Shown here one piece after another: positions 9,040 to 32,000 of a DNA stretch of 32,000 bases. A program made the position numbers and the translations under genes. Numbering within the stretch: position 1 is the first letter of the stretch; every line of letters starts with the position of its first letter. This DNA is from Telmatobacter bradus. Lineage in GTDB: Bacteria; Acidobacteriota; Terriglobia; Terriglobales; Acidobacteriaceae. Location: contig NZ_CP184532.1 of assembly GCF_048629425.1 (NCBI RefSeq), positions 413,398 to 445,397 on the forward strand, written 5' to 3'. The notes under the pieces were generated by a model that worked only from the letters and a program-made list of their open reading frames with translations, was not told where the DNA came from and ran no database searches.

Positions 9040-9044
9040 GTATT

Positions 9045-9069: not shown

Positions 9070-9135
9070 GTGCGATAATTCTGAACTCATGGCAAGGTCA
9101 CTGTTTGCATCTGTTTGTAAATACAGTAGATATAG

Positions 9136-10660
9136 ATGAATGGTGCACCAGCTGAAGATCATACTCTGTTCGATCCCTTTTCCTCGGGCGGCATTGTCTT
9201 TACTACGATTCAGAAATTCATCCCTGCCGACGATGATCGTGATCCCAAACTGACGGATCGGCGTAACGTCATTGTGATTGCTGACGAAGCCCACCGCAGT
9301 CAGTATGACTTTATTGATGGTTTTGCGCGGCATATGCGCGATGCGATTCCCGGCGCAACGTTCATCGGGTTTACAGGTACACCGATTGAGAAGACGGATG
9401 CCAGTACAACGGCAGTTTTTGGCGATACCATCTCGGTCTATGACATTCAGCGAGCCGTAGAGGATGGGGCCACTGTCCCGATCTATTACGAGAATCGCCT
9501 CGTAAAGCTCAACCTTGACGAAGCCCTGAAGCCGCAACTTGATTCCAGCTTTGAAGAAGCAACTGAGGATGAGGAAGTAGGCAAGCGGGAGCGGCTGAAA
9601 TCGCGCTGGGCAGCGGTTGAGGCCATTGTCGGAACCGAAACGCGCATCAAGGCTGTTGCCAAGGACATAGTAGACCACTTTGAGGCTCGACAGCAGGGCA
9701 TGGTGGGCAAGGGCATGATCGTCTGCATGAGCCGCCGCATCTGCGTTGAGCTTTACAAGGAACTGACGGCGCTGCGCCCCAAGTGGCACTCGGACGATGA
9801 CAAGGAAGGCGCAATCAAGATTGTAATGACCGGCAATGCGACCGATCCCGTTGATTGGCAATCGCATATTCGCAACAAACCCCGCCGTGAGGCCATAGCG
9901 GAGCGATTCAAGAATCCCAATGACCCGTTGGAACTGGTCATTGTGCGGGATATGTGGCTGACGGGCTTCGATGTGCCTTGCCTGCATACGATGTACGTTG
10001 ACAAGTATATGCACGCGCATGGGCTGATGCAGGCGCGGGTGAATCGCGTCTTCCGGGACAAGCGCGGCGGGTTAGTGGTGGATTATCTGGGGATCGCGCA
10101 GGAGCTAAAGAAGGCGCTCTCAACCTACACGGAAGGCGGCGGAGAAGGTGATCTCACGCGGCCTCAGCACGAAGCCGTGGAGCTGATGCTCCGACGGCAT
10201 CAGGAGTGCTGCGCTTTGTTCAAGGGCTTCGATTGGTCAGGATGGGCCGATGCCAAGCCAAGCGACAAGTTGGGGATGCTGCCCTGGGCACAAGAACTCA
10301 TTCTGGCGCAGCCGCAAGGAAAAGAAAATCTCACCCGATCAGTTGCAGAACTTACTCACGCTTTTGCGCTCGCGGTGCCGCACGATGAGGCTTTGCGGAT
10401 TCGGGACGATGTAGGTTTCTTTCAGGCGGTGCGGGCGGTGCTGGCAAAGTCGCCGACGCAGCAGGTTGGCCGTGTCGATTCTGAATTGGCCATTCGACAG
10501 ATTGTATCGAATGCCATCGTGACCGAGGATGTGGTCGATATTTTCGCTGCTGCTGGTTTGAAGAAGCCTGACATCTCGATTCTGTCAGACGAATTTCTGG
10601 CGGAGATTCAGGCCATGCCTCAGAGAAATCTGGCAGTTGAACTTCTGCAAAAGCTGCTTA
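9136..10660 (+). pseudogene. hsdR: Type I restriction enzyme R subunit (HsdR), helicase core fragment; 5'-truncated and 3'-interrupted by IS21
   Basis: [19 protein letters not shown] (motif II), FIGFTGTPI (motif III) and [35 protein letters not shown] stop (TAG 9133-9135) immediately precedes the first codon. The nuclease domain and helicase motif I (about 350-400 aa) are absent. Confidence 0.88.
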
Positions 10661-10789
10661 TGATTTCGCTACTCTGAATTGGCCCCATTTGATGCTCTGA
10701 GTTGGCCCCACCTGGGGCAGAGCCCGTTATCTTGTTTCGGGGTAATATTCCCCGGAAACGAGGACGGCTTGGCCACAAGGAGGAGCAAG

Positions 10790-12370
10790 GTGGAGCTATA
10801 CGAGCAGATCCGGCGGGAGTACGAGCATGGCGCCGGGACGATCCGCGCGGTAGCGCGGAAGTTGGGAGTACATCGACGGGAGGTGCGCCAAGCCTTGGCC
10901 AGCGCGCTGCCTCCAGAGCGGAAGAAGCCGCAGCGGGAGCGGCCCAAGCTGGGACCGGCAGTTCCGTTCATCGACGCGATTCTCGAAGCGGACCGCAAGG
11001 CGCCGCGCAAGCAGCGGCATACCGCGCATCGCATTTGGATGCGGCTGCGGAAAGAGATGCCGGAGATTGTCGTCGGCGAGTCCACGGTGCGCGAGTATGT
11101 GTGCGAGCGCAGGCAGGCGATGGGGCTTCTGAAGCATCAGGTCTTCATCGCGCAGTCCTATCACTTTGGCGACGAAGCGCAGGTGGATTGGTACGAGATC
11201 CAGGCCGAGTTCGATGGCCAGCCGCGCAAGGTCTACATCTTCTGCATGCGCTCGATGGCCTCGGGAGCGGCCTTTCACCGGGCCTATCCGCACGCCACGC
11301 AACAGGCATTTCTAGAAGCCCACGAGTTGGCGTTTCACTGGTTTGGTGGGGTCTTTCATACTCTCAGGTTCGACAACCTGACCTCGGCGGTGAAGAAGAT
11401 TCTGCGCGGCTATCAGCGGGAAGAGACCACGCGCTTCATCGCTTTCCGCTCGCACTGGGGCTTTCAGGCAGAGTTCTGCACGCCGGGCGAGGGCCACGAA
11501 AAGGGTGGCGTCGAAAACGAAAACGGGCAGTACCGGCGCAACTACATGGTCCCCGTGCCGAAGGTGCGCAACCTGGAAGAGTTGAACCAGCTACTGGCCA
11601 CGGGAGCCGTAGAGGAGCAGGCGCGTCTGATCACTGGTCGCAGCCTGTCGATCGGCGCATTGATGCTGGCCGAGCGCGAGCATCTGCTTCCGCTGGCCAC
11701 CGAAGGCTTCGATCTGGCCGCGCTGCACTTTCCTCATGTGAACCAGAGCGGCTGCGTCAAGGTGTTGACCAACTTCTATTCGACGCCGTTGCCGGTGGGA
11801 ACCAGGGCGGCCGCCAAGGTCTACTCGGCTTACGTGGAGATCTGGCACGATGGGCATTGCGTGGCGCGGCATGAACGCTGCTACGAGCGCCATCAACAGG
11901 TGCTGGAACTGGACCATTATCTGGATGTGTTCGAGAGGAAGCCGGGGGCGCTGGCCGGATCCACGGCTCTGGAGCAGTGCCGGACACAGGGTCGCTGGCC
12001 TGCCAGTTATGATCGCTTCTGGTCCATCGTCAGCGAACGGGAAGACCGTCAGGCCGGAACGCGGACGATGATCGAGGTTCTGTTGCTCAGCCGCACCTGT
12101 GGCGCTGGCCGCGTTCGCCAGGCGGTGGAAGAAGCGCTGGCGATGGGCGCTTCCAGCCTGAGCGCGATCCGCTATCTGCTCAGCGTGGACTGCCGGCCAG
12201 CAACGGCAGAAGCGCTGGCTGTGGAGGTCGGCGAATTGCACCGCTATGACCGTCCGCAACCCAGCATGGAAGCCTATGAACAACTGCGGCCGAACTGGAC
12301 TGAGCCTCCACAGACAGACTCAAGTTCCCGGATTGCAGACTGGCCGGTGGCGACGGAGGTGGTCCAGTGA
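10790..12370 (+). CDS. istA: IS21-family transposase IstA
   Basis: The GTG at 10790 is preceded by AAGGAGGA. The product starts [32 protein letters not shown] (HTH), followed by an rve/DDE core (QVDWYE...). The stop overlaps the istB start. Confidence 0.93.
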
Positions 12371-13137
12371 GCACACCCCAGCCGATTGAACAGGCCGCCA
12401 TTCAGCAGTATGCCCGTCAACTCTATCTGACCACCGTGGCCGACCAGTTTGCCCGTCTGGCCGAAGACGCCGTCCGCAAAAAGCAATCGCATTTGAGTTA
12501 TCTGGAGGCGCTGCTCGGCGCCGAGGTCGAGGAACGTGAGCGCCGAGCCGTGCTCCGGCGCATCAAGGAGGCCCACTTCCCGGCCGTCAAGACGCTTGAG
12601 GAGTTCGATTTTCAAGCGGCACCGCACATCTCCGCGGCGCTGATAAAAAAGCTCAGCGAGGGCGAGTATCTCGAACGCAAGGAACCAGTGATTTTGTTAG
12701 GGGAAACGGGCACGGGTAAAAGTCACTTGGCCGTCGCTCTGGCCGTCGCCGCTTGCCGCCAACGCAAGCGGGTGCGCTTCACCACAGCGGCGGAGCTGGT
12801 GACGGAGATGATCGAAGCCCAGAGCCAACTGCAACTGACGCGGATGCGCAACCGCTGGATGCGCTACGACCTTGTCGTCCTTGACGAACTTGGCTACGTC
12901 GTCATGCCGGACGCCGCGGCGGAGTTGCTCTTCCAGGTGATCGCCGGCCGCGCCGAGCAGGCGGCTCTGATCGTAACAACGAACTTGCCATTTTCCGAGT
13001 GGCCCACCAAGATCCCCAACGCACGGCTGTGCAAGGCGATGCTCGATCGCCTGACGGATCGCGCTCACATCATCGAGACCGGAACAGAGAGCTACCGGTT
13101 CCGCAGAACCATGGCTAGAAAAGCAGGTAGGGCATGA
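12367..13137 (+). CDS. istB: IS21-family helper ATPase IstB
   Basis: Walker [17 protein letters not shown], Walker B VVLDELGY, and a typical IstB C-terminus ([23 protein letters not shown]). Confidence 0.95.
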
Positions 13138-13640: not shown

Positions 13641-14113
13641 AGGGCGAGATCAAAACTCGCTCCCGGCGGAATGTGGTTCAGGCGCGCAAATTCTCCGATC
13701 TGATCGAGGCTTCTTTACGGCGCTATCAGAACCAGGCAATTGAAACTGCACAAGTGATTGAGGAATTGATCGGCCTGGCAAGGAAACTGAATGAGGCTTT
13801 ACGGCGCGGTGAACAGCTTGGGCTGAATGAAGATGAACTAGCCTTCTACGATGCCTTGGAGGTCAACGACAGCGCCGTACAGGTGTTGGGGGATACATCC
13901 CTACGGGCTATTGCCAAAGAACTCGTCGAAAATGTTCGAAAGAACACGACCATCGACTGGACACAGAGGGAGAACGTCCAAGCCAAACTCCGGGTAATCG
14001 TCAAGCGCATTCTGAAAAAGTACGGCTATCCACCAGACAAGCAGGAGAAGGCAACCCAGACCGTATTGGAGCAGGCCGAAGTACTGTCCGAAGGATGGGC
14101 AGTATCGCTCTAA
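13641..14113 (+). pseudogene. hsdR: HsdR C-terminal fragment (continuation of 9136-10660 across the IS21 insertion)
   Basis: Encodes (K)[43 protein letters not shown] ... DELAFYDAL ... [12 protein letters not shown], a typical HsdR C-terminal (DUF3387-type) region. The frame is continuous with codon A(10660)+AG(13641-13642). Confidence 0.88.
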
Positions 14114-14189: not shown

Positions 14190-15227
14190 AGTGGGGTAGC
14201 TGCCTTAGTACAGTAGCCCCTACAGGTTGTGTTTTGCGGCTATTTGGCTGGCTCTTGAAGGGCGAAACCTCGTGGGCTGTGTTACGGCGGCATTTTCCAG
14301 CAAGCGATAGAAGAGCATTCCCCGTCGGCGCGATTTCCTGCGGTTGAAGCGAAAGGCAAACTCGTCCAGGTATGCATCCAGATGCGTGGCGGTAACCGAA
14401 CCTTGATGTGTTCCCAGCAGCCAGCGTTTCAGCCGCGATGCAATCTTATGGACACCCGGCATGACCACATGCGCCGGATCGCCGCTACTGGAGATACTGA
14501 CGGCATGGTGCTTGTGGCCTTCTTTTGCCAACCCCGCATAGCCCTTCCAGCCATCGGTGCACACCTGTGATCCCGGCTCAATCGCGAACTGCACAAAGGG
14601 AATCAGACTACGCGAGGAGGCATCCGCAACCCGCTTCAGCCGTACCCGCCCGAAGCCTATCGGGGAAAGCACTTCGATCGCGATGGCCACGATAAACTTA
14701 CGCTCCGCGCCGCGTCCGCGTGTGCCCTGCTCGATTCCCCCCACGTAGGTTTCGTCCACCTCGACTGTGCCTTGGAGTCGCTCGCGGCCAGGACGCACCA
14801 TGGCTGTCCGCAACTTGCGCAGCATTGTCCAGGCCGTCTGATAGCTGCCCAGGCCGAGAAGTCGCTGTAGACCCAACGCGCTGACTCCATATTTTTGGTT
14901 GGTCATGAACCAGATAGCGGTAAACCAGTCGGCCAGCGGTACGCGGCTGCGGTCGAAGATCGTTCCTGCCGTTACAGACACTTTGCGAGCACAGCCAGCA
15001 CAGGTCCAGCGCCCATCGGACAAGCGCCAGCCCTTCTCACTGGAGCATTTTGGACAATGAAAACCGTTTGGCCAACGGAGCCGCTCCAGGTAGCCAATGC
15101 AGGCTTGTTCATCGGGGAACCAAGCGCGAAACTGTTGCCATGTGCCCGGATAATCAAGCCCCAAATCGGGTTTTGCCTCGGATACCACTACATATAGATC
15201 CTACTGTACTCAGGCAGCTACCCCACT
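14190..15227 (-). mobile_element. Complete IS1595-family insertion sequence (1038 bp)
   Basis: 27-bp IRs are AGTGGGGTAGCTGCCTTAGTACAGTAG (14190-14216) and CTACTGTACTCAGGCAGCTACCCCACT (15201-15227), with one mismatch. The 8-bp TSD TGATCGTA lies at 14182-14189 and 15228-15235. Confidence 0.92.
14220..15188 (-). CDS. IS1595-family transposase (ISXO2-like)
   Basis: N-terminal zinc ribbon CPKC...CAGC. Also FDRSRVPLADWFTAIWFMTNQKYGVSALGLQRLLGLGSYQTAWTMLRKLR and VEVDETYVGG. GTG start. Confidence 0.92.
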   Translation of the reverse strand: MVSEAKPDLGLDYPGTWQQFRAWFPDEQACIGYLERLRWPNGFHCPKCSSEKGWRLSDGRWTCAGCARKVSVTAGTIFDRSRVPLADWFTAIWFMTNQKYGVSALGLQRLLGLGSYQTAWTMLRKLRTAMVRPGRERLQGTVEVDETYVGGIEQGTRGRGAERKFIVAIAIEVLSPIGFGRVRLKRVADASSRSLIPFVQFAIEPGSQVCTDGWKGYAGLAKEGHKHHAVSISSSGDPAHVVMPGVHKIASRLKRWLLGTHQGSVTATHLDAYLDEFAFRFNRRKSRRRGMLFYRLLENAAVTQPTRFRPSRASQIAAKHNL

Positions 15228-16424: not shown

Positions 16425-17216
16425 ATGCAGATTTCTCCACATTGTTATGCCGTGACCGGGCTCGGATACTTCTCTCCGTGGTGCGTCAATGCCGGCTTTG
16501 TGGCAGGCGATACCACCACGCTCATCATCGACACCGGCACAAACTGGATGGCGGCGCAGACGATTCACGGCTACGCTTGCGCGGTTCGTCCCGGCAATCG
16601 AATCCTGGCTGTGAACACCGAGAAGCACTTCGATCATGTCGGCGGCAATGGCTTCTTTCGCGACCTCGGAATAGACATCTACGGACACGCCGAGAATCAG
16701 CGAACCGCCGAGGAGTTTGCGGCCGAGATTGCCGTGTTCAACGATTCCACTCTCGACCGCCAGCGCCGCGAGCGCCAGGAAGCCCATGCCTTCTTCCATC
16801 GCACGGAGTTGACCGCGCCGAACAAGAAGCTCGGCGAAGGAACCGTCTTCGATCTGGGCGGCGTAACTGCGGAGGTGCTCTTCACGCCGGGACACACGCG
16901 CACCAACCTCTCCATCTGGATTCCTCAGGAGCGCGTACTTTATACGGGCGATTGCGTGGTGAGCCTGTACCGGCCGAATCTAGAGGCGGGGAGCAGCGAA
17001 GACTGGCGTCTTTGGCTTGCCTCGCTCGACCGGATCGAAGGCCTGCGCCCGGCGTTTGTGCTCGGCGGGCACGGCAATCTACTGAGCGCGGCCGAGCTGA
17101 CCACGGCCATCGAGATCATCCGCGGCGATCTCCGCGAAGCCATTGCGCAGGGTCTGTCGCCCCATCAGCAATTTTGCAAACAGAATCCAGATGGAACAAA
17201 GGCCGACTACTTGTAG
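16425..17216 (+). CDS. MBL-fold metallo-hydrolase
   Basis: NTEKHFDHVGGNGFF (HxHxDH-type motif), FTPGHTRTN, LYTGDCVV and LGGHGN. Confidence 0.85.
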   Translation: MQISPHCYAVTGLGYFSPWCVNAGFVAGDTTTLIIDTGTNWMAAQTIHGYACAVRPGNRILAVNTEKHFDHVGGNGFFRDLGIDIYGHAENQRTAEEFAAEIAVFNDSTLDRQRRERQEAHAFFHRTELTAPNKKLGEGTVFDLGGVTAEVLFTPGHTRTNLSIWIPQERVLYTGDCVVSLYRPNLEAGSSEDWRLWLASLDRIEGLRPAFVLGGHGNLLSAAELTTAIEIIRGDLREAIAQGLSPHQQFCKQNPDGTKADYL

Positions 17217-17236: not shown

Positions 17237-18445
17237 CTACGCCGCTTGCATGGGAACAACGCTGCCGAAGGGCGCATGACGGCCGCCGGTTGAGGCCCAG
17301 AGCACGGGATAGTATGGAGCTTCGTCGGGAAATGTCCCGTAGAGGTCGGTCAGAAAGACCAGCGTCTGCGGTTGAATTCCATGCTCCCTCAGCCAGTCGA
17401 AGCACGGACCGAAGTCAGTTCCTCCGCCGCCAACGGGATTGAGATGAACGGTCTCCCCGGCTTGATAGGTCTCCACTTTGTGTACCTCAGTGTCGAAGTA
17501 CAGGACGTGAACGCACTGTGGCCGTTGGCCTTCGAGGATCGAGCAAACCTCAGCTTCAAAGAGACGCAACAACCGACCATTCACCGAGCCTGAGCAATCG
17601 ACAGCGATGGCAATCTCTCCGACGCCCTCGCGCACGACTCCAGGCAGATAGAGTCCGTTCCAGATGTGACGGCGGTTGGGCCGCATCCAACTCGAATCGG
17701 CAGGGATAGTATCGGACCAGAGCCGGCGCAACAGTTCACGCCAGTCTACTGTTGCCTCTGCGGCTCCTTCGAGAGTGCGGGCCAGACCCGCAGGAGCCTT
17801 GCCGGCTTGCTTCGAGAGCGTGACTGCTTGGTTGACGGCAACGCTCCACTCTCGCGCCTGCTCTTCAACACTGGGTGTTTCGTCGTTCGGCAGAGGTGCA
17901 TCAAGAACCTGGCCGATGCCGCCCTCCGTCACTGGCGCAGTCGGCTCATCGGTGCTGCCTTGCTTTTCTGGCGTTTCGCCCGCGCCAGTTCCGGCACCGT
18001 TATTTGAGCTGTTCTGGCCGCCAGACTGCGGCTGTGCTTCTGCATCGCGCAGGTTGTAAATCTGTTCAGCACTCATGCCACGGAAGCGGTGATCGACAAG
18101 AACGCCATCCGGCAGACTGAGGCCAGCGTCGAGCAGCAGTGGATTGATGGCGTAATCGCACGCCTCATTCCACCTCTTTGAATCGCGCCCGGAACGCCGC
18201 ACATGATGCTGGAGCGCGGGGTGCATGACCTCGTGGGCCAACACCCCGGCCAGCGTTGCCGAGTTCAGTGTATCGACGAACTCAGGGTTGTAGTAGAGCG
18301 ACACGCCATCCGTCGCCATGGTTGGAATCGACCGCTGTTCGCGCCCCTTCAAGCGAAACAAGAGCGAGCCAAAGAATGGATGATCCAACAGAAGCGTAGT
18401 CCGCGCCTTCTGAATACGAATGGATGCCGGTGTCTCATGTCTCAT
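17237..18445 (-). CDS. Zincin metallopeptidase-like (DUF2201_N) plus VWA-like domain protein
   Basis: ARTTLLLDHPFFGSLLFRL...TMATDGVSLYYNPEFV...LAGVLAHEVMHPALQHH..R...D...WN.ACDYAINP (HExxH). A low-complexity linker precedes a C-terminal VWA-like half (IAIAVDCSGSV...). There is a 4-nt overlap with the upstream gene. Confidence 0.85.
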   Translation of the reverse strand: MRHETPASIRIQKARTTLLLDHPFFGSLLFRLKGREQRSIPTMATDGVSLYYNPEFVDTLNSATLAGVLAHEVMHPALQHHVRRSGRDSKRWNEACDYAINPLLLDAGLSLPDGVLVDHRFRGMSAEQIYNLRDAEAQPQSGGQNSSNNGAGTGAGETPEKQGSTDEPTAPVTEGGIGQVLDAPLPNDETPSVEEQAREWSVAVNQAVTLSKQAGKAPAGLARTLEGAAEATVDWRELLRRLWSDTIPADSSWMRPNRRHIWNGLYLPGVVREGVGEIAIAVDCSGSVNGRLLRLFEAEVCSILEGQRPQCVHVLYFDTEVHKVETYQAGETVHLNPVGGGGTDFGPCFDWLREHGIQPQTLVFLTDLYGTFPDEAPYYPVLWASTGGRHAPFGSVVPMQAA

Positions 18446-19386
18446 GCCGCCGCGGGTGCCTCCATGTACGCAGACATACGGGAGAGGATGTCATCGACCG
18501 TTGGAGCGTCTGGCGCCTCCTCCGGCACGCTGGCTTCGCGATCACGCAGAACGCTATCGATCTCAGCGACAATCTCCGCGGCATCGTTTGCCGTTGCCAC
18601 GCGCAGCAGGTCGTGCTTCTTGAGGTCCTGCGCCGTAAAGCCGCACAGCCGCTGCCTGATCTGATCGGCGAACCGGTTCAGATCTGCGTCACCATTCACG
18701 TTCAGGCGCGGCAGCAACTCCACCAGATCGAAGACATTTGTGACCATCGTCGCGTGGAAGCGGGACTCCGGCTCATTCAAGCGGTCCACCATGTGCGAAA
18801 CCACATCCCTGAGCCGCTTCCACAAATCTTCGGTGCCGCGCGTCAGAGATTCCCGAACATTGGCGTCGATCTCGCGGGCGACACGCGCCTGCTCTTCGGC
18901 CGACATCTGTACGCGAAAGTCGTTGCCAGTCGGGATAGGCAAGATCTCCAGCTTCACGCCGAACTTCTTGCCCAGTTTGTCGGCGGCGGGATAGTCTTCC
19001 TCACGAAACAGGCCGTTCAGCTCCGGACGCACCTGCTCGATGTACTGCGGATAGACCTGAAGGAAGCTCTCCACGCCTTGCTCAAAGCTGGCCTCGAACT
19101 CGCGCATCCTAGCAGTCAAATCGAAATAGAGATTCGACGGTAACAGGCGAAAGCCCTCATCGGACCACGGCAACGTGATCTTGTAGAAGTACTGGCGCAC
19201 CTGCCCAGCCAGCGTGCGCAGTTCATCGAGTTTGTCGGCGCCACGCAGCAACTGCTTGTTGTAGCGGCCCGCGCCCTGGTGCGCTCCGTGTTGGTCGGCA
19301 ACGTCGCGGCTGATCTTGCGGTCGTGTTTGATGGCCGTCCAAATGCTGATATGGACGGCGGCGAGCATTGCGCGTTCAGTAATCAT
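18442..19386 (-). CDS. Conserved mobile-element protein, DUF3150-like (family name uncertain)
   Basis: 314-aa protein-like ORF sandwiched with 4-nt overlaps between the MoxR-like ATPase and the VWA genes. The N-terminal LAAVHISIWTAIKHDRK resembles my memory of the DUF3150 N-terminus. Confidence 0.75.
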   Translation of the reverse strand: MITERAMLAAVHISIWTAIKHDRKISRDVADQHGAHQGAGRYNKQLLRGADKLDELRTLAGQVRQYFYKITLPWSDEGFRLLPSNLYFDLTARMREFEASFEQGVESFLQVYPQYIEQVRPELNGLFREEDYPAADKLGKKFGVKLEILPIPTGNDFRVQMSAEEQARVAREIDANVRESLTRGTEDLWKRLRDVVSHMVDRLNEPESRFHATMVTNVFDLVELLPRLNVNGDADLNRFADQIRQRLCGFTAQDLKKHDLLRVATANDAAEIVAEIDSVLRDREASVPEEAPDAPTVDDILSRMSAYMEAPAAA

Positions 19387-20393
19387 CGAACTACCTCCCT
19401 ATGTTCCACTCCGAAGCGAACGAAATCCGGCGTGTGGGTGATGGCGGTGTCCCGCGCCGCAGCATCGCGCATCGCCATGACGCGCATTTCGGTCGGCATA
19501 CGGTTCAGATACTTGAGTCCTCTGGCCACCGAGTTGTCAGTCATGGCCCGGCCAAGTGCCGTCGCAATTGCGATCTGCGCCGAGGTCTCCGCCGGGAGGG
19601 GAGCCGTCTCCGGGTTGAGCAGAATTTCGTCGATTGACGGCAACTGCCGAAAGAGCCGCAAGAATGCAATCAACTCCGCCGCCGCCGCAGGCCCTACCGT
19701 TCCGTCGAGCAACTGCGCCTCGAACTCGCTCGCGCCAGAAAGGAAGGTAGTCTTCTGCCGGTTCGCAATGCCGCGTAGAACATTGGAGGCCATCTCCCAG
19801 GATCGGGGAGTGGGCCAGGCATTGGCGTCCGAGGTCGCATCGGCGGTATGCAGCAGGTCAGGCTTGAAGCGGAGAAACGCGATAATCTCCGGCCGCACGC
19901 CCGCGCCCACGGCCCATTTGCACCAGTCGTTGAGGTCTGCTTCGAGGTCAAGATGAACAAACCGATTCCGCAACGGACGCGGCATCGAGAAATGCACACC
20001 CCGCTCCGAGGCCGGATTGCCGGCGGCAATAACTACCCAGCCGTCAGGCAAAACGTACTCTCCGAGTTTGCGGTCGAGCACCAGCTGGTAGCAGCCGGCC
20101 TGCGTCATCTGCGGAGCCGAGGTCAGCTCGTCGAGAAACAGAATGCCTTTCCCGGCGGTGGGAAGAAACTTGGGTGGCACCCACTCGGTCTGGTCCTCTT
20201 TGATGCGCGGCAGCCCGCGCAGATCGACCGGATCGAGTTGCACGGCGCGAACGTCAAGAAAATCAAAGTCGAGATCGTCCGCAACTTGTGCGACAATCTG
20301 CGACTTGCCAACGCCGCACGCGCCCCAGATATGCAGAGGCACACGTTCGCCGATCAGCGCATGAAGCGCCTCGTAAAGCTTGGATGGTTTCAT
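19383..20393 (-). CDS. MoxR/AAA_5-type AAA+ ATPase
   Basis: Walker A IWGACGVGKSQ, Walker B ILFLDELTSA, VVIAAGNP and PLRNRF, in a single AAA module of MoxR/CbbQ-like size (336 aa). Confidence 0.88.
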   Translation of the reverse strand: MKPSKLYEALHALIGERVPLHIWGACGVGKSQIVAQVADDLDFDFLDVRAVQLDPVDLRGLPRIKEDQTEWVPPKFLPTAGKGILFLDELTSAPQMTQAGCYQLVLDRKLGEYVLPDGWVVIAAGNPASERGVHFSMPRPLRNRFVHLDLEADLNDWCKWAVGAGVRPEIIAFLRFKPDLLHTADATSDANAWPTPRSWEMASNVLRGIANRQKTTFLSGASEFEAQLLDGTVGPAAAAELIAFLRLFRQLPSIDEILLNPETAPLPAETSAQIAIATALGRAMTDNSVARGLKYLNRMPTEMRVMAMRDAAARDTAITHTPDFVRFGVEHREVVR

Positions 20394-22751: not shown

Positions 22752-23130
22752 TCACCCATGCGCGACATCAAGGCGCGCCATCTGGTCGAAGTCGAACAAA
22801 ACCGAAACTAGATCAACGGTTAACAGCCCATTGCGCGCAATGAGAACTCTATCGGTCGTCCGCACCGGTCTCGGTTCGGTGGCGGTTCAGCAACGATCCA
22901 CAATTGGAAGAGCGCACGGTGGTGCGTCCCTTTAGGGCGTGCCCTCCAGTTCTTCAGTTCCTTCCATTGGCTGGCCTCGTTGATCTCTGCAGATCCGAGG
23001 TCTTCTTCTGGCTCGGTCGGTACGGCATTGAGTGCGACAGTTGGTAGTAGCCACACATGCATGCCCCTATTCCCACTCAGATTCGTCAAGGCTTAGCTTC
23101 GCTCGGGCCGTTGTGTGGTTTGGTTCTTGC

Positions 23131-24096: not shown

Positions 24097-24430
24097 TCAG
24101 GCCACGTCATCCAGTTCTTCGGTCTCTTCGATTGGCTCATCGTCGTCAACCTCCGCAAACCCGGGTTCTTCGTCCGATTCTGCAGGCGCGACGGTGGTTG
24201 TGGCAGCCGGTGCTGGCATATCGAATAGGCTTGCGGGCTTCTGGGGTGCGGACTTCGATGGCTCAGTGGACTTGGCTGTCGGAGAATACTGAGTGACTTC
24301 TGTATTCGGCTGCGTTGTCTTGGTCGGCGTCTTCGACTTTGTGCGCGCCTCGGCCTGGGCATCCTTGGAAGCCGCATCCATCTCGGCCATGGCCTCCTCC
24401 AGAATGTCCTCATCTGCAGATGGCAGTCAA
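24097..24430 (-). pseudogene. Decayed second copy of the 3' half of PRTRC protein E
   Basis: Nucleotide-level similarity (roughly 80% by eye) to 26379-~26714. It encodes ...AEMDAASKDAQAEARTKSKTPTKT...PASLFDMP...EPGFAEVDDDEPIEETEELDDVA. The first ~66 codons are missing. It has a 1-nt deletion relative to the intact copy in the LEKVKAEMD region. Confidence 0.8.
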
Positions 24431-25501: not shown

Positions 25502-25810
25502 ATGAGCACGAAACAACTACTGGCTGAAATCGAGCGCGGCATCAAAGCCTTACAGAAGGCACAGGCTTTGGTGTTGAAGGCTGAGGCTGTTGCACCGAAG
25601 GCTAAGGCGACCACGGCCAAGACAGCCCGCGCGAAGGCGGCCAAGGCAACTAAGGTACCAGCAAAGAAGGCCACAAAGGGCGGAATGAGCGATGAGGGTC
25701 GAGCCAAGATTGCCGCAGCTCAGCAGAAGCGTTGGGCGAAGGTCAAGCGGGAAAAGAACAAGGCCGCTAAGGCCGCAAAAGCCGCTCTGGCCGTCCCCGC
25801 AGTACTGTAG
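25502..25810 (+). CDS. Histone H1-like Lys/Ala-rich DNA-binding protein
   Basis: An N-terminal helix is followed by AKAKATTAKTARAKAAKATKVPAKKATK and KNKAAKAAKAALA repeats. A hairpin terminator follows. Confidence 0.75.
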   Translation: MSTKQLLAEIERGIKALQKAQALVLKAEAVAPKAKATTAKTARAKAAKATKVPAKKATKGGMSDEGRAKIAAAQQKRWAKVKREKNKAAKAAKAALAVPAVL

Positions 25811-25873: not shown

Positions 25874-26026
25874 GTGGAGGACTCGCTTGTTCGCTTTGGA
25901 CGCACATGGCCACGATGGTCAATCCAGCTCAGACCTCCGCACACCACGGAACTACAAACGTGATAGCACACAAAGCCTCAATCCAAGTTTTGATGTGTCA
26001 ACGTGCATGAAGCAGAGGACGATGAT

Positions 26027-26341
26027 ATGCCACAGTTCGGGTCACCTTTTTCGGAATTGGCGAACGGTAGAAAACTCACGGACGAAGAACTGATCAGAGC
26101 GATTCGGTTTATGGTCGCCTCCGAGTATGAAGCAACTCAGATGTATATGCAGCTTGCAGAGTCAACTGAAAACAAACTCGCCGTGGCGGTGCTCAAGGAC
26201 ATAGCGGACGAGGAGCGTGTACACGCAGGAGAGTTCTTGAAGCTGCTGTACACCCTTGCTCCTGATGAAGAGGCACTCTATGCCAAGGGTGCTGGAGAAG
26301 TAGCTGAAATCGCAAAATCGCAACTTCAGCATACAAAGTAG
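26027..26341 (+). CDS. Small ferritin-like/rubrerythrin-like protein of the encapsulin-cargo (Flp/EncFtn-like) type
   Basis: LTDEELIRAIRFMVASEYEATQMYMQLAESTENKLAVAVLKDIADEERVHAGEFLKLLYTLAPDEE shows the ExxA..Y ... DIA.EE.VH.GEF pattern. An alternative start lies at 26003. Confidence 0.65.
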   Translation: MPQFGSPFSELANGRKLTDEELIRAIRFMVASEYEATQMYMQLAESTENKLAVAVLKDIADEERVHAGEFLKLLYTLAPDEEALYAKGAGEVAEIAKSQLQHTK

Positions 26342-26378: not shown

Positions 26379-26915
26379 TTAGGCCGCGTCATCCAGTTCT
26401 TCGCTCTCATCGATTGGCTCATCGTCGTCAACCTCTGCAAATCCAAGTTCTTCTTCCGACTCGTTTTGCAAAGTTGTGTCTGTGGCCACTGGTGACGGCA
26501 TATCGAAGAGGCTTGCAGGCTTCTGTTGTGCGGGCTTCGCTGGCTCGGCGGGCTTGGCGGTCGGAACGTATTGAGTGACTTCCGTATTCGGCGGCGCTGT
26601 CTTGGTCGGCGTCTTGGACTTAGCGCGCGCCTCGGCCTGGGCAGCCTTGGAAGCAGCATCCATCTCGGCCTTGACCTTCTCCAGGGTGTTCTTCATCTGA
26701 AGATGGGAGCCGACAAAGCTGATGATGGTCGTGGACAACTCGGCGTCCAGATCTTCGGCAGTGCCGGTCACGCTGAGCGGGGTGGTGAGAGCATCATTGT
26801 CGCCGTCTTTGAGCTTCTTCGGCACAATGTTCACCCGAATCTGATCTGCATCAACCAGCGTGACCGTGAGCAAAACCGCGCGGTCACGTAGAACTGGAAC
26901 AAGTTCTTTGAACAT
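26379..26915 (-). CDS. PRTRC system protein E
   Basis: MFKELVPVL...LLTVTLVDADQIRVNIVP...LTTPLSVTGTAEDLDAEL, then a Lys/Ala/Pro-rich linker and a strongly acidic tail. This matches my memory of the PRTRC_E family. The ATG at 26915 has GAGGAG upstream. Confidence 0.8.
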   Translation of the reverse strand: MFKELVPVLRDRAVLLTVTLVDADQIRVNIVPKKLKDGDNDALTTPLSVTGTAEDLDAELSTTIISFVGSHLQMKNTLEKVKAEMDAASKAAQAEARAKSKTPTKTAPPNTEVTQYVPTAKPAEPAKPAQQKPASLFDMPSPVATDTTLQNESEEELGFAEVDDDEPIDESEELDDAA

Positions 26916-26929
26916 GATTACTTCTCCTC

Positions 26930-27265
26930 TCATGGGTTCCGATATGTGGTTGGTAGTCGCTTTCTCGTGGGCTTCTTGAGTTCCGGTTCATCCCACAGCA
27001 TGGTGTACTGCTGCCCCAAGGCTATGTTTTCGACAAAAGCCGCCGCGTCGTTTTTGCGCTGCCACAAAAGCCGATAGAGCGTATTGACGGCCGATTTCAT
27101 CATGGCCTTCATCTCCTCGTCGGAGATGTGGGATACAGCAGGATTTCCACTGCAAACCGTGCACGGTTTCCCTGCGTGCAAAGCTTCAATGGGGCCGTTG
27201 CGAAAGGCCAGTGCAACCATCGCTTTTGCTTCGATCGCAAGAGCATGGTCGAGAGTCACTTCCAT
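26930..27265 (-). CDS. Unassigned 111-aa protein in the slot after ThiF (not recognisably PRTRC protein A/JAB)
   Basis: The ATG at 27265 has GGAGG upstream. It contains AFRNGPIEALHAGKPCTVCSGNPAVSHISDEEMKAMM. No HxH...S..D JAB motif is present. A 14-nt gap separates it from protein E. Confidence 0.6.
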   Translation of the reverse strand: MEVTLDHALAIEAKAMVALAFRNGPIEALHAGKPCTVCSGNPAVSHISDEEMKAMMKSAVNTLYRLLWQRKNDAAAFVENIALGQQYTMLWDEPELKKPTRKRLPTTYRNP

Positions 27266-27314
27266 GGAGAGCCTCCGATACTCTCCAACATACATCCTCC
27301 ACGGGAATGACGCA

Positions 27315-28136
27315 TCAATGCCTTTTGAATGATTTTTCCTCATGCCGGTAACGGCGCATCGTCTTCGACCAAAGCTTCGGATCAACGGGCAACGGACTTA
27401 TGAGTCCAGACTGCGCATTAAAGAAGCCGCCGTGGTGCGTTAGTTTTCCATAGCGAAAGAGACGCGCCAGCATGGCCAGTGCACTCGACGCCAAAGTCTG
27501 GTTGATAAATGGCTCTTGACGGTCCAGTGCCTCAACGGCAGAACAACTGGGCAGCGGATCTTCGCCAGCCTCAGCGTCGATGATCTCTGGATACAGTTCA
27601 CTGACTGTGCGCAACCGTGCGGCCTTCCTACGATTGCGCGCATTCAATGGCTGGCCGAGAACGAATTGGCCACTGGCCGCGTTGTTGCCGAGATCGAACC
27701 AATACGCAGTGCGGTTCCTGGCTTTGGTCAGTGCGCGCGCAATAATGCTTCGCGCCGCTCTGGTGTCCACGCATCCAATCAGTAGATCGATGGACCTGTC
27801 ATTGATCCGGTCGAAGGTGTGCTCGCCGAAGTAAGTCGGTTCGGCCCGCCACCGTGTTCCCCAAAATAGGTTGATGCGATTGACGAGGACAGTAGCTTTG
27901 TTCTGCCCGATGTCGGAGACCGAGAATGGTTGGCGCACACAGTTCGTCTCAGAGACGGTATCGGCATCCATCATGACCACTTCCAGCCCCGATGACCGGC
28001 CCCAGACCCGCATCGCCTGGTCGAGATAGGGCAGGCCCATCACGATGGCGCTGCCGGTCCCGCCCGCGCCGACAACCAGTACGCGCACCGGCTTTTGGCC
28101 CAACAGATCGCTTGGAATCGTGTGCTCGATGCGCAT
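27315..28136 (-). CDS. PRTRC-type ThiF-family E1-like adenylyltransferase
   Basis: VRVLVVGAGGTGSAIVMGL (a Rossmann P-loop-like motif) and MMDADTVSETNCVRQPF. The ATG at 28136 is 1 nt after the protein B stop. Confidence 0.85.
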   Translation of the reverse strand: MRIEHTIPSDLLGQKPVRVLVVGAGGTGSAIVMGLPYLDQAMRVWGRSSGLEVVMMDADTVSETNCVRQPFSVSDIGQNKATVLVNRINLFWGTRWRAEPTYFGEHTFDRINDRSIDLLIGCVDTRAARSIIARALTKARNRTAYWFDLGNNAASGQFVLGQPLNARNRRKAARLRTVSELYPEIIDAEAGEDPLPSCSAVEALDRQEPFINQTLASSALAMLARLFRYGKLTHHGGFFNAQSGLISPLPVDPKLWSKTMRRYRHEEKSFKRH

Positions 28137-28137
28137 A

Positions 28138-28845
28138 TCATCCTCTCTCTCCACGCACGAACTGCGTGAGCGTCTGCGGAAGGACAATGAGCGTTTCGAG
28201 TGGGAACTTCTGGTGCTTGCCAGTCAGACCATTCCATAGCCCATCAAATCCGCCCTCATGGCGTGTCAGGCGGCCTACATTGGCGTGTGTGAAGGCGCTC
28301 TCGTAGAAGCCGCGCTCCCAGGCTGGAATAGCGGCTACCGAGGCCGAGTCCGGGCGCCGCATCGTGCCTGTGCAGACGCGCCCGTCGTCCGAGAGATTCC
28401 AGAAGGGCGGGACGGCGAGTCTTGTTGAGCAATCTGGCCGCTTATTCTCAGTAAGCGCCCGAATGATGAGTTCTCCATTCGATACCTTCCACACTAGAGG
28501 AGGCTGCGAAAAGATGCGCCCGTTCAGCTCCGCCGCTTTGCCTTCGGAGTTCTCATAGAACATCTGGCGGCGCCGCGCAGGAACCCACCAGGCGATCATG
28601 CGGTCCGCCTTGGCAAGTACGTTGGCCGGCAGCACCTCGGCCTGCACGCTGCCGCTAAGGGATCGCGTCAGAGACTCGATGAATGCTACAGTGAGCGGTT
28701 GCGCCGGACCGAGCGTGGGCGGCGCATCCTTGCGTGCGGTCACGTCGTGGCGGGTGATGAAACTGCTTTGGCGGTCGCGATAAATCAGCAGCGCCTCATG
28801 CAGCTCGAAGCGATGGTTCTCCCCGATCGATAGATGTACCTGCAT
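28138..28845 (-). CDS. PRTRC system protein B (E2/UBC-fold-like, candidate catalytic Cys)
   Basis: VHLSIGENHRFELHEALLIY, WWVPARRRQMFY, LNGRIFSQPPLVWKV, IRAL...RP...T.L.V.PFWN...DGRVCTGTM and FY.S.FTHAN match my memory of PRTRC_B. Confidence 0.8.
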   Translation of the reverse strand: MQVHLSIGENHRFELHEALLIYRDRQSSFITRHDVTARKDAPPTLGPAQPLTVAFIESLTRSLSGSVQAEVLPANVLAKADRMIAWWVPARRRQMFYENSEGKAAELNGRIFSQPPLVWKVSNGELIIRALTENKRPDCSTRLAVPPFWNLSDDGRVCTGTMRRPDSASVAAIPAWERGFYESAFTHANVGRLTRHEGGFDGLWNGLTGKHQKFPLETLIVLPQTLTQFVRGERG

Positions 28846-29941
28846 CGCGCTTCTCCCATTCCAGGATTTCCTCGACCAATTCAAAGAGCGCGCAGTTAAG
28901 CGCAATAAAGCGATCCACGATCCGAATAGCATGACGAACCTGCTCCGGTTGGCGCGGCGAAAAGACAACGCACACGGTCGGCTCGGCGGTGCCTTCCATC
29001 ATGGACTGGCCCTCTTCGTCGAAGCAGGCGGTAATGGCATCATGCTCTTTGAAAGCGACAAGCAGCGCCGGCAACGGTGGATCGTCGTAGTAGCCGAGTT
29101 CGAGGTACTCCCGCGATTGCTTAAGTGAAAGCCGCGACAGGCACTGAATGCCCCGCAACCGCTCAAACCAAGAACTGAATTTGCCATTGCGAAACCTGCG
29201 CAAGAGATCGCGGTCCTGTGCTTTCCAATCCGGAGATTCGCGTTTCTGCGTTTTTCGGATGTACTCCGGCAGCGCCTTCTCCACTTCTGGAAATTCATAC
29301 TGCCCTTGGTTCTCTGCGTCGTCTTCGGCGGCATAGTCGCGCATCCGCTCTTCGTACATCAGCGCATTGTCGTGGTTGTAGATCCACATCACGCGATAAA
29401 GTGCGAAGGTCAGTGCCCAATAGAACGCCGCGCCCAGCCCCTCGGCCTCAGCTTCCAGCGCATCAAGCGCCGGACCAATCCTGAAGTACCCCGATCCGCC
29501 ACACTCGACGGTGACAACCAGTTGCCCGCTTTCGAGTTCCGCATCGCTTCCCGCGCGGCCTAGTTGATCGCTTACTTCAAGGTGATACTCGACATTGCGT
29601 TGCAGCAGATCGCGACGCTCAGGGCCAATCGCGCTCATCATGGCGTGCTGCGCAAATAGAAGCACGTTTCCGCCAGATTTCTTCCAGGTCTCCGTAGTTC
29701 CCAATCCCTCGCACACCAGCGCCGCGCATAGTTCATAGACCAGTTCAGCATTGACCTCATGGTTATACTCGGCGCGAACATCGGCGAGCAATGGCAATGC
29801 CTGTCCGAAGGCTGGTGCAAGCGTTGCTACCCCAGTGGCGGAAGCAGTTCCGGCGGTGTCGGGAGCCGATAACTTCCCGATGCCACATATTTCCTGATCG
29901 CTTCTGATACGGCTTGCGCGAGATCGCAGGATTCTTTGCAT
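28796..29941 (-). CDS. PRTRC system protein F (start uncertain)
   Basis: The body and C-terminus are protein-like (YWALTFALYRVMWIYNHDNALMYEERMRDYAAEDD...CFDEEGQSMMEGTAEPTVCVVF...RFIALNCALFELV). The 5' ~75 codons of the supplied 418-aa ORF are Arg-rich and look out of frame. Candidate starts are ATG 29941, TTG 29797 and TTG 29791. Confidence 0.65.
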   Translation of the reverse strand: MQRILRSRASRIRSDQEICGIGKLSAPDTAGTASATGVATLAPAFGQALPLLADVRAEYNHEVNAELVYELCAALVCEGLGTTETWKKSGGNVLLFAQHAMMSAIGPERRDLLQRNVEYHLEVSDQLGRAGSDAELESGQLVVTVECGGSGYFRIGPALDALEAEAEGLGAAFYWALTFALYRVMWIYNHDNALMYEERMRDYAAEDDAENQGQYEFPEVEKALPEYIRKTQKRESPDWKAQDRDLLRRFRNGKFSSWFERLRGIQCLSRLSLKQSREYLELGYYDDPPLPALLVAFKEHDAITACFDEEGQSMMEGTAEPTVCVVFSPRQPEQVRHAIRIVDRFIALNCALFELVEEILEWEKRDAGTSIDRGEPSLRAA

Positions 29942-30045
29942 TGAAGATGCCTCGCCAGTATGAGGTTTGCCTCTGGCGGCGGTTCTGCGGCCTTCTTGAG
30001 GAACGCCGCCACCAATTCTTCTTGCGACAATGCGGGCGTGGGCAC
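29827..30045 (-). CDS. Possible 72-aa ORF between PRTRC C and F
   Basis: The GTG at 30045 lies 3 nt after the protein C stop, with AAGGGG upstream. Its translation (SQEELVAAFLKKAAEPPPEANLILARHLQCKESCDLAQAVSEAIRKYV) looks far more protein-like than the overlapping F-frame translation. It is in the same reading frame as protein C. Confidence 0.45.
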   Translation of the reverse strand: MPTPALSQEELVAAFLKKAAEPPPEANLILARHLQCKESCDLAQAVSEAIRKYVASGSYRLPTPPELLPPLG

Positions 30046-30048
30046 GGT

Positions 30049-30261
30049 TCACCCCTTCGAGCCAATCGCTCGACTGAAGGTGTAACGCAGCGTGGTCCCG
30101 GTATCTTCCGGACCGGTGAGGGTTGCAGTCGCAATTTCAGGAAATTGTGGAGTGAGGAGGTCGCGAACCTGCTCGACGCTCATCTGCGGCGCCGGATCGG
30201 GAATGCGAATGCCGTTGTAGTGAAACTCACGCAACAGGACTTCTGCTTTGAGAGTAGCCAT
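30049..30261 (-). CDS. PRTRC system protein C (ubiquitin-like beta-grasp protein)
   Basis: 70 aa. ..LLREFHYNGIRIPDPAPQMSVEQVRDLLTPQFPEIATATLTGPEDTGTTLRYTFSRAIGSKG-stop matches my memory of the PRTRC_C pattern (..R.F.Y.G...PDP.P.MS.E.V......YPE......GP.....L.Y.F...(V/I)G(T/S)KG). A C-terminal Gly directly precedes the stop. Confidence 0.85.
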   Translation of the reverse strand: MATLKAEVLLREFHYNGIRIPDPAPQMSVEQVRDLLTPQFPEIATATLTGPEDTGTTLRYTFSRAIGSKG

Positions 30262-30309
30262 CGTGATTCTTCTCCTTGTTTGCAGGTTCAGGTTGAACCA
30301 AAGTTGTGA

Positions 30310-30837
30310 TCAAAAGAGACTGCCCTGTAGTGGCGTCCTCGTGATTGCGATTTCCTGCGTGGATGCTGGTGAAACCTGTCGTGCCAAGTCCTCATCTGGT
30401 GTTACGTGAACAACCGCTCGATACTTCGCTTCAAGCATCCTGAGCGTCTCGATTTCGCCGGAACGCACAGCCTCGGCAGCGCGGAGTTCATAGCGAGCAA
30501 GATAGTTGCGTTTGCGAATCTCCTGCTGAATCGCGCGCTCAACGTCGCAAAACATGTATTCTGGATCGCCCCAGCACGGCCATTGAAGCGAGTGACGAAG
30601 AAATTCAAGCCGGTCAGTATCGGATGCAAACCAAGTGTCATAGAACGTTGCCAAGTTGTAGTGCGCACTATTGCCAAAGCACATTGAAAGGCGGTTATAG
30701 AAGCTCTTGGAAAATGCTGTGCGCGCCCACTCTGATTCGATGAAGTGCAAGAAGGCGTTGCCAAAATCAGCTTTGTCCTGAGCCGATGAAAACTTCGTGG
30801 GCACAAACTCAGAGGGATGAAACGGTCCTTTCGGCAT
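30310..30837 (-). CDS. Hypothetical protein (175 aa), no family recognised
   Basis: GGAGA RBS, protein-like with several W/C/H residues (LQWPCWGDPEYMFCDVE). First gene downstream of the helicase and upstream of the PRTRC genes. Confidence 0.65.
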   Translation of the reverse strand: MPKGPFHPSEFVPTKFSSAQDKADFGNAFLHFIESEWARTAFSKSFYNRLSMCFGNSAHYNLATFYDTWFASDTDRLEFLRHSLQWPCWGDPEYMFCDVERAIQQEIRKRNYLARYELRAAEAVRSGEIETLRMLEAKYRAVVHVTPDEDLARQVSPASTQEIAITRTPLQGSLF

Positions 30838-30998: not shown

Positions 30999-32000
30999 TC
31001 AGCCGAAGAGGCTGAGCTGCACGGCCTGCCCTGTGTCCGTGGACCAAGGCGAGGGCTTCTTGCGCACCTTCACGCCCGCTTGAGATTCAACAAGATGAAT
31101 GCCAGCGCGTTCGGATGCTGGACCTACCGGTTCGGTGACTGGCAAATCCAAGACAGGATTGTCGTCTTCCACTGCCTTCAACGCAGGCGGCTGTGGCAGC
31201 ACCCGCTCCCGTTCTCTTTCTAACTCGCGCCATGCGGCGTCTGCTGTTTCCCCAACTCCGGCCTTCTCGACCAACTCGCGCGCCATGGCGCTCATCAGGT
31301 CTTCGTCAGTGTCGAGTGATTGCAGACCTTCACCAGAGAACTTGCCCTCCATCATCAGCGCGACGAGCATTTTCTTGCCCATCAATCGGAGGCAGGTCTC
31401 TTGCATCGTGCCCGTATAAGTGACGAACTTCACGCGCACCGCGTGCCGCTGGCCAATGCGCCAGGAGCGGCGGCTCGCCTGACGCAACGTATGCAGCGAG
31501 TAGCCGGTCTCGTAGAAATAGAGTGTCGAAAAGGCTAACAGGTCGAGGCCAGTCTCCACCAGTTTCGGGTGGCAGATCACGACTTCAACTCCGCCTTTCA
31601 GTTGCCGCTCGTACCAATCTTCGCGCTTGTCTGTGGAAACCGAAGAGCGCAACACGGCAACCCGGAATCCTGCCTGCCTGAGCACAGACTCCAGCCGCAG
31701 CGTAACATCCTTCTCACCCGTGTAAGTCGCATAGACCTGGCAGCGCCGCCCCTGCCTGAGTTCCTCACGCACGTCGGCGATGAGCGCGCGTTCTTTCGCG
31801 TAGAGGCAGTCCTCCTTCAAGTTCTGAGGCGTCGTCACCAGGAACTTCACATACTCTTTGGTCTCCGGGTCAAAGGCCCGCGCCCAAATGTCTTCAAAGC
31901 CGTAAGGATGGTCGGGATAGAGCAGCAACGTATTGAGCAGTATGCTCATCAGGCTCTTGTTGCCGCGATGCGCTCGGATCGCAGCCCGGATGTCCTCTTC
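30999..32000 (-). CDS. SNF2/DEAD-like helicase, C-terminal part (gene continues beyond the window edge)
   Basis: Helicase C-terminal motifs VVICHPKLVETGLDL and LRQASRRSWRIGQ. The frame stays open through 32000 (EEDIRAAIRAHRGNKSL precedes the listed Met). Confidence 0.85.
   Translation of the reverse strand, partial: EEDIRAAIRAHRGNKSLMSILLNTLLLYPDHPYGFEDIWARAFDPETKEYVKFLVTTPQNLKEDCLYAKERALIADVREELRQGRRCQVYATYTGEKDVTLRLESVLRQAGFRVAVLRSSVSTDKREDWYERQLKGGVEVVICHPKLVETGLDLLAFSTLYFYETGYSLHTLRQASRRSWRIGQRHAVRVKFVTYTGTMQETCLRLMGKKMLVALMMEGKFSGEGLQSLDTDEDLMSAMARELVEKAGVGETADAAWRELERERERVLPQPPALKAVEDDNPVLDLPVTEPVGPASERAGIHLVESQAGVKVRKKPSPWSTDTGQAVQLSLFG

Follow-up and report, generated by a model that had tools for sequence, protein, structure and literature searches.

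A probable lineage-specific variant of the PRTRC ubiquitin-like cassette, with neither a JAB nor a ParB member, in a mobile element of the Acidobacteriaceae

The DNA considered here is a 32,000-nucleotide stretch of the Telmatobacter bradus genome (assembly GCF_048629425.1, contig NZ_CP184532.1, positions 413,398 to 445,397 of the forward strand), referred to throughout as the window, which carries on its minus strand a set of genes related to the PRTRC (ParB-related, ThiF-related) cassette, the fourth operon type (6d) of Iyer, Burroughs and Aravind (2006). We consider it likely that these genes are a functional, lineage-specific PRTRC variant carried by an integrated mobile element of the Acidobacteriaceae as part of the conserved backbone of that element. 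As read from the encoded proteins, the core of the variant is made up of protein C, which is a ubiquitin-like protein (Ubl), a small protein that we call p72, a divergent protein F (F'), the E2-like protein B, the E1-like ThiF protein and protein E, with no JAB protein A and no ParB. An original prediction, made from the letters of the window without database searches, had described a PRTRC-type Ubl/E1/E2 cassette with no recognizable JAB or ParB member and with two unassigned small open reading frames (ORFs), and its individual claims are taken up below where the evidence bears on them.

The canonical PRTRC gene order is ParB-E-C-F-B-A-ThiF, as annotated on Cupriavidus metallidurans pMOL28 and on plasmid 1 of Aromatoleum aromaticum EbN1. 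The loci related to that of the window, almost all of which come from Acidobacteriaceae/Terriglobales, including Edaphobacter modestus DSM 18101, share a different arrangement, and in about 70 of them the order is helicase-(p175)-C-p72-F'-B-ThiF-(p111)-E, followed by variable cargo and then by AAA-p314-DUF2201-RNaseH-Gp157, the genes in parentheses being facultative. These related cassettes are referred to below as the clade.

Anatomy of the cassette

The cassette occupies positions 26379-30837 of the window and consists of eight tightly packed minus-strand ORFs, listed here in the order of transcription:

30310-30837, minus strand: p175, 175 aa, conserved hypothetical protein
30049-30261, minus strand: PRTRC protein C (Ubl, beta-grasp), 70 aa, ending IGSKG-TGA; TIGR03738, PF14454
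29827-30045, minus strand: p72, 72 aa, GTG start at 30045; clade-specific core protein
28796-29941, minus strand: F', 381 aa, divergent PRTRC protein F (alpha-hel2)
28138-28845, minus strand: PRTRC protein B (E2-like, Prok-E2_D), 235 aa, ATG at 28845; TIGR03737, PF14460
27315-28136, minus strand: PRTRC ThiF (E1-like adenylating enzyme), 273 aa, ATG at 28136; TIGR03736, PF00899
26930-27265, minus strand: p111, 111 aa, ATG at 27265; facultative accessory
26379-26933, minus strand: PRTRC protein E, 184 aa; TIGR03741, PF19556

All eight ORFs lie at the positions that the original prediction gave for them, and the close couplings and motifs that it described are likewise present: 3 nt separate the stop codon of C from the GTG of p72, 1 nt separates the stop codon of B from the ATG of ThiF, F and B overlap by 50 nt, and DDGRVCTG, GAGGTGS and HAGKPCTVCSG occur in B, ThiF and p111, respectively. 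This anatomy of the gene train is correct, far beyond chance. In addition, the stop codon of p111 and the start codon of E overlap as ATGA, and the ATG of C is preceded by AAGGAG as a Shine-Dalgarno (SD) site. Scans for promoters and terminators were uninformative.

Family assignments, catalytic residues and selection

The assignment to the PRTRC type is borne out by curated models, which match C, B, ThiF and E above their cut-offs. The score of C against TIGR03738 is 85.8 bits (cut-off 45.95), that of B against TIGR03737 is 174 bits (131.45), that of ThiF against TIGR03736 is 265 bits (144.75) and that of E against TIGR03741 is 62.6 bits (37.95); the corresponding Pfam families give 72 bits for C (Prok_Ub PF14454), 129.5 bits for B (Prok-E2_D PF14460), 49.5 bits for ThiF (PF00899) and 26 bits for E (PRTRC_E, PF19556). 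Searches of PDB sequences with p111, p175, p72, F', B, C and ThiF returned no match. The closest ThiF on a plasmid is that of Pelobacter pPRO1, at 44.6% identity, and each of the 413 plasmid records found by tblastn with ThiF falls below 60% identity.

The residues on which Ubl transfer would depend are retained. Neither the clade nor three canonical B proteins show any variation at the Cys of B within G-x-[VI]-C-x-G or at the downstream His within F[TS]HxN, and the GAGGxGS, TN..RQ, CVDxRxAR and PSCS motifs of ThiF are conserved between the clade and the canonical proteins. In all 34 clade members compared, the stop codon of protein C directly follows IG[ST]KG, which leaves a bare Gly at the end; the exposed terminal Gly pointed out for the window thus holds for every one of them, and a processing protease would not be needed. 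Protein E has an N-terminal domain, a linker rich in Pro, Ala and Lys, and an acidic tail; it lies at the 3' end of the operon, always after ThiF or p111 in the clade, as opposed to its position before C in canonical cassettes.

Ratios of nonsynonymous to synonymous substitution (dN/dS) were calculated pairwise against seven relatives, with a synonymous component (dS) that was often saturated. They range over 0.03-0.15 for C, 0.10-0.15 for B, 0.05-0.14 for ThiF, 0.17-0.23 for E, 0.10-0.19 for p175, 0.12-0.24 for p111 and 0.12-0.45 for p72. Across all of the genes the values lie at 0.03-0.25, p72 reaching 0.33-0.45 only in comparisons with the two most distant relatives, and by this measure all of the cassette genes are under purifying selection.

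Absence of protein A and ParB

Protein A of canonical cassettes matches DUF2016 and Prok-JAB, in keeping with the statement in the original prediction that it is a JAB-type protein. About 45 ORFs of the window were scanned, each with Pfam, NCBIfam or both, and among them there was no match to PRTRC_A (TIGR03735), PRTRC_D, PRTRC_F or PRTRC_parB (TIGR03734) among the NCBIfam models or to Prok-JAB or ParB (Pfam). A tblastn search of the window with three A and two ParB proteins also found nothing. Related loci were collected by a scan of genomes with the p111 family (66 loci) and a scan of metagenomes with the upstream helicase (80 peat and bog loci), which together make up about 146 loci and about 1.9 Mb, with flanks of up to ±10 kb. 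Protein A had no tblastn match (E up to 1e-4) in the 66 genome loci, the 80 metagenome loci or the other loci that were fetched, and a hidden Markov model (HMM) of three A sequences, run unfiltered (--max) on the related loci, also found none, its best E value being 0.79. Prok-JAB is absent from the precomputed Pfam tables of eight of the loci (L005-L011 and L083), and in L097, where the match to the helicase covers its C-terminal part, the 10 kb that precede this part contain no JAB or ParB gene. The only ParB match among the related loci is in L063, where there is no cassette.

In the clade the gene on one side of ThiF is B and that on the other is p111 or E, so that no JAB gene adjoins the E1-like gene. 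Nor do p111, p72, p175 or F' have a JAB/MPN match in library scans, in hhalign comparisons of p111 and p175 with protein A, or in the structural model of F'. The predicted lack of a JAB or ParB member thus extends from the window to every related locus examined. PRTRC protein D (TIGR03739) had no NCBIfam match among 30 window ORFs either; no D is annotated in the ±7 kb around the ThiF genes of pMOL28 and EbN1 either, or in the stretches of pPRO1 that were examined.

The protein at the F position

Canonical F is the alpha-hel2 protein of Pfam, and the label of protein F that the original prediction gave to the ORF preceding B proves sound as a statement of remote homology and not as a match to the curated F models, the failure of which the prediction itself had counted as evidence against it. 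TIGR03742 and PF14456 do not match F' (NCBIfam E up to 10, Pfam up to 0.01), BLASTP of F' against canonical F is insignificant, and a first hhalign comparison from shallow profiles gave a probability of 32%. A profile search of 1.84 billion representative sequences recovered 425 relatives of F', and PF14456 (alpha-hel2) matches 3 of 45 full-length members of this family. F' can be regarded as a divergent protein F because hhalign of the broadened family profile against canonical F gives a full-length alignment of 306 columns with a probability of 97.6% (E 3.1e-12).

F' most likely starts at the ATG at 29941, within p72. A GAGG SD site and ATG situated 111 nt upstream of the conserved N-terminal block are found in 27 of 29 distinct sequences, this internal ATG is the sole start available to F' in several loci, and gene callers in most cases give F' a length of 381 aa. 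With this start F' would overlap the last 115 nt of p72 and not follow p72. Within p72, the codons that make up the SD site and ATG of F' are invariably AGG (Arg) and CAA/AAA (Gln/Lys), even though CAG and AAG predominate in the rest of these genes, and the overlapped 37-42 residues of F' are poorly conserved and predicted to be disordered. Positions 29827-29941 of the window appear on this reading as a 115-nt dual-coding overlap of p72 and F'. Two other readings of this ORF were rejected: a fusion of p72 to F' by frameshifting explains F' less well than the conserved internal SD site and ATG, and a long reading of 418 aa is not favored by the homologues, which support 381 aa.

The AlphaFold2 model of F' (pLDDT 84) is rich in alpha helix with a small sheet, with residues 1-42 disordered; it does not have an MPN/JAB fold and has no Foldseek match in PDB. 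When the models of p111 and F' were compared with BFVD by Foldseek, the only match was one uncharacterized phage protein. The T. bradus genome contains a second copy of F'.

The small proteins p72, p111 and p175

Both of the small ORFs that had been left unassigned in the original prediction, p72 and p111, turn out to be real, conserved genes without a family assignment. Neither has a match in Pfam, NCBIfam, PADLOC or PHROGs. The sequence of p72 is conserved over its full length among 23 distinct sequences, with the motifs APPP and RHLQCKES and a C-terminus of ELLPPL(G/A), and it is found in 48 of the 51 loci that have C as well as in relatives (L079-L081) that are 31-36% identical to it. Gene annotation of the related contigs often omits it. 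By this distribution p72 is a core gene of the clade. The spacer between C and F in canonical cassettes is only 76-110 nt, so there is no equivalent of p72 in them.

The p111 family has 568 homologues of 107-111 aa, all unnamed, in which the motif H30-x4-C35-x2-C38-x7-H46 is invariant or nearly so and is a possible Zn site. The AlphaFold2 model of p111 (pLDDT 83) has four helices, with the His and Cys residues of the motif on a loop, and no relative of it was found in PDB by sequence or by Foldseek of the model; hhalign gives a probability of 0.1% for a relationship with protein A. The gene is present in 13 of 33 cassettes anchored by the helicase and is absent from L083. A reading of the p111 ORF as 151 aa was rejected, since the homologues support 111 aa.

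The original prediction had p111 filling the slot after ThiF in place of a JAB protein. This does not hold, as canonical cassettes have A ahead of ThiF, following B, and we have rejected p111 as a JAB substitute because of its facultative occurrence, its helical model and its lack of relationship to A. Viral contigs in IMG/VR contain no relative of p111, so nothing points to a phage origin. Homologues of p111 at 50-60% identity also occur alone in chromosomal contexts that have no cassette (L063 and L066-L073); in two of these (L067 and L068) the homologue follows a Lys/Ala-rich protein resembling the window ORF at 25502-25810, and in L063 it adjoins the ParB-like gene, outside any cassette.

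The largest of the three, p175, has 788 homologues, all unnamed and without Pfam domains, and is 100% identical to ACOBR2_01905 of T. bradus. It has no match in Pfam, NCBIfam, PADLOC, PHROGs or PDB, and its hhalign probability against protein A is 0.2%. It is present in 64 of the 80 helicase-anchored loci and is missing from some full cassettes; p111 and p175 are thus to be placed, from their occurrence, among the frequent accessories and not in the core.

The surrounding element

The backbone genes that accompany the cassette in the window are as follows:

30999-32000, minus strand: SNF2-family helicase, 3' part, leaving the window at its end; conserved upstream neighbor
19383-20393, minus strand: MoxR-type AAA, in the downstream backbone module at 17237-20393 (Pfam)
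18442-19386, minus strand: p314, in the same module
17237-18445, minus strand: DUF2201 metallopeptidase with VWA, in the same module (Pfam); context, outside the cassette

Most related loci have the helicase gene ahead of C; in the window its translation is open to base 32000 and matches Helicase_C (E 4.7e-8). Its full-length counterpart in L097 has 766 aa with SNF2/ResIII and Helicase_C domains and is preceded by a DUF6094 methyltransferase gene, the 10 kb upstream of the matched helicase part in this locus also encoding a 219-aa protein, a Sel1 repeat protein and Gabija-like cargo. In most related loci an interval of 1.5-8 kb separates E from the AAA-p314-DUF2201 module downstream. On several Cupriavidus and Ralstonia plasmids the same module, composed of AAA, DUF3150-like and DUF2201 genes, follows cassettes that do contain a JAB gene, at a distance of 8-14 kb (in NZ_LT984809, ThiF is at 457.9 kb and DUF2201 at 449.3 kb). 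The module is therefore regarded as shared backbone, and DUF2201 was rejected as a replacement for JAB that is specific to the variant.

T. bradus has at least two copies of this type of element. Near-identity DNA searches of plasmids and of E. coli genomes found nothing, and exact-protein look-ups of the window proteins returned none on record.

Several other features of the window and of its relatives bear on the history of the element. The 3' end of E occurs three times on the minus strand, once in the full gene (26379-26692) and again in a 315-nt remnant (24097-24410), which is 84-89% identical and an incomplete ORF, and a 41-nt remnant (22932-22972), with cargo genes between the copies of E; the region between E and AAA-p314-DUF2201 looks like a hotspot for cargo, at which repeated recombination events have left these copies as scars. 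Farther downstream, a SIR2_2-domain gene (1399-3162) and an adjacent Piwi-domain gene (3159-4580) look like a defense pair of the short prokaryotic Argonaute/SIR2 kind, and they are adjoined by an insertion sequence (IS) with a DDE_Tnp_1 transposase (218-1192). The R subunit of a type I restriction system is in two pieces (9136-10677 and 13673-14113), split by an IS21-type insertion (istA-like, 10679-12370; istB, 12367-13137), and an IS1595 transposase gene follows at 14220-15188. A gene of the metallo-beta-lactamase fold (16425-17216) lies on the plus strand, opposite to its neighbors, between RNase H and DUF2201, and is a possible anti-defense phosphodiesterase; a gene of the same fold in L010 has a weak Pfam match to the Anti-Pycsar protein Apyc1. 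On the plus strand next to E, a gene at 26003-26341 encodes an EncFtn/rubrerythrin-like ferritin (NF058679, 88.8 bits, just under the cut-off of 90), which is kept beside E in the close relatives L005 and L006, and the window contains no encapsulin shell gene. In L083 the upstream helicase gene is interrupted by three tyrosine recombinase genes (4184-9831), and the Gabija-like cargo of L097 is an OLD-TOPRIM and UvrD pair (2078-4662); for these reasons the backbone appears to be a frequent landing site for mobile and defense cargo.

Proposed mechanism and alternative explanations

By homology with related Ubl systems, C would be made in its mature form with a free C-terminal Gly, ThiF would adenylate this Gly and may also carry C on the conserved Cys of its PSCS motif, and C would then be passed on to the conserved Cys of B and attached to a target, probably at a Lys residue. 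F', p72, E and, where present, p111 might act as specificity or scaffold factors. Since no deconjugase encoded in cis was found, the tagging would be one-way, unless an enzyme encoded at an unlinked site undoes it. Judging from its context, the cassette may serve to establish or protect the element in its host rather than for housekeeping, because the neighbors include the DUF6094 methyltransferase, the SNF2 helicase, RNase H, Gp157, MoxR/VWA proteins and both defense and anti-defense cargo (SIR2/prokaryotic Argonaute, type I restriction-modification and metallo-beta-lactamase-fold genes). A fuller picture can be offered only tentatively, as a possibility that we rate below even chances: that the cassette is a naturally deubiquitinase-free Ubl conjugation machine in which a ready-made Ubl is used for tagging that is irreversible or resolved by degradation, with p72 and p111 taking part in the choice of targets, and that it is used in establishment or anti-defense.

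Some points weigh against a functional variant that has dispensed with protein A. The related loci were examined with flanks of only ±10 kb and a JAB gene could lie farther off; just three sequences went into the HMM for A; the use of generic JAB/MPN models was confined to the ORFs of the window and to gene tables that had been precomputed; and in pPRO1 the gene for A has already been displaced beyond a helicase gene. Moreover, we infer conjugation as such because no experimentally tested PRTRC/6d system was found, the literature searched containing no experimental work on PRTRC/6d and PDB no solved structures of its proteins. Some of these points would also suit a rather unlikely alternative, in which the system is a normal, reversible PRTRC with a deconjugase (A, another JAB or a peptidase) that acts in trans from a gene at some other place in the element or chromosome. 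The separation of A from ThiF by a UvrD helicase gene in pPRO1 means that the linkage of A can loosen, and the second copy of the element in T. bradus, like the limited flanks, leaves room for such a gene. Nevertheless, no A-like ORF was found in the 1.9 Mb around roughly 146 loci or in the 26 kb downstream of the cassette inside the window, and the Ubl of the clade never needs processing. According to Iyer et al. (2006), operons of these types without exception have a JAB that is either fused to the E1 or next to it, so that an unlinked JAB would itself be unusual.

It is improbable that another protein of the island, i.e., p111, F', p175 or the DUF2201/VWA protein with its MoxR ATPase, has replaced JAB as the deconjugase. 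The constancy of the H-C-C-H motif of p111 is in its favor, as is the downstream linkage of DUF2201_N, a putative metallopeptidase, yet p111 is absent from 20 of 33 cassettes and its small helical model has no peptidase-like match, F' is orthologous to a canonical F that coexists with JAB, p175 is facultative, and the module containing DUF2201 also lies beside the JAB-containing cassettes of Cupriavidus and Ralstonia. Even less credit can be given to the view that the cassette is a decaying remnant that has lost A and ParB and no longer works. Truncated or disrupted loci do occur (L008/L028, L011, L020 and L083) and the window contains IS elements and E remnants, but dN/dS is 0.03-0.25 over saturated dS for all genes, about 70 loci from many species have retained complete ORFs together with the catalytic residues, and the internal SD site and ATG of F' are conserved.

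The interest of a functional, lineage-specific variant is that PRTRC (6d) is one class of bacterial ubiquitin-like operon whose function appears untested. That a widespread clade under purifying selection does without JAB and ParB argues for the Ubl, E1, E2, F and E as the functional core, to which cis deconjugation is not essential. In addition, the clade offers a minimal system from cultivable hosts, namely Edaphobacter modestus DSM 18101 and, probably, T. bradus, and it brings to light two previously unnoticed components, p72 and p111.

Comparison with known systems

The closest comparison is with the canonical PRTRC cassettes (TIGR03734-03742), which have homologous C, F, B, ThiF and E proteins and the same internal order C-F-B, and which likewise reside on mobile elements with the AAA-DUF3150-like-DUF2201 module downstream. 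The clade differs from them in that A (JAB-N/DUF2016 plus JAB) is missing from its place before ThiF and ParB from the upstream side, in the transfer of E to the 3' end, in the additional core gene p72 that overlaps the start of F', in the facultative p111, and in an F' that is too divergent for the curated models; the hosts are Acidobacteriota here and Pseudomonadota there. The C protein of pMOL28 has a five-residue extension after the Gly, in contrast to the Ubl of the clade, which ends in Gly, and this difference fits a lineage with no need for a processing peptidase. The Pelobacter propionicus plasmid pPRO1 resembles the clade in that B is directly followed by ThiF and in that its protein at the F position is not named F and matches alpha-hel2 weakly; it differs in keeping ParB-E-C at the 5' end, in having A downstream of the UvrD helicase gene, and in having neither p72 nor p111.

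Some lineages of other bacterial ubiquitin-like systems also do without a JAB partner. PADLOC gave sub-threshold, generic E1-E2 matches to ThiF of at most 22 bits and none for C, B, F', E, p72 or p111, PHROGs gave no match beyond generic E1, and NCBIfam gave 27.5 bits for NF058523 (cut-off 320); in neither PADLOC nor NCBIfam was there a family-level match to the known anti-phage systems of this kind (Bil, CBASS type II and 6A-MBL). The Bil, Bub (6E) and CBASS Cap2/Cap3 systems have in common with the clade the chemistry of a Ubl or target with an E1 and an E2 and their carriage on mobile elements or in defense islands; they differ from it in that there is no match at the level of families, the E2 here being of the Prok-E2_D family and the E1 and E2 being separate proteins. 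What we describe is therefore best placed with a known but uncharacterized system, of which the new part is a JAB-free version in the Acidobacteria with extra small genes.

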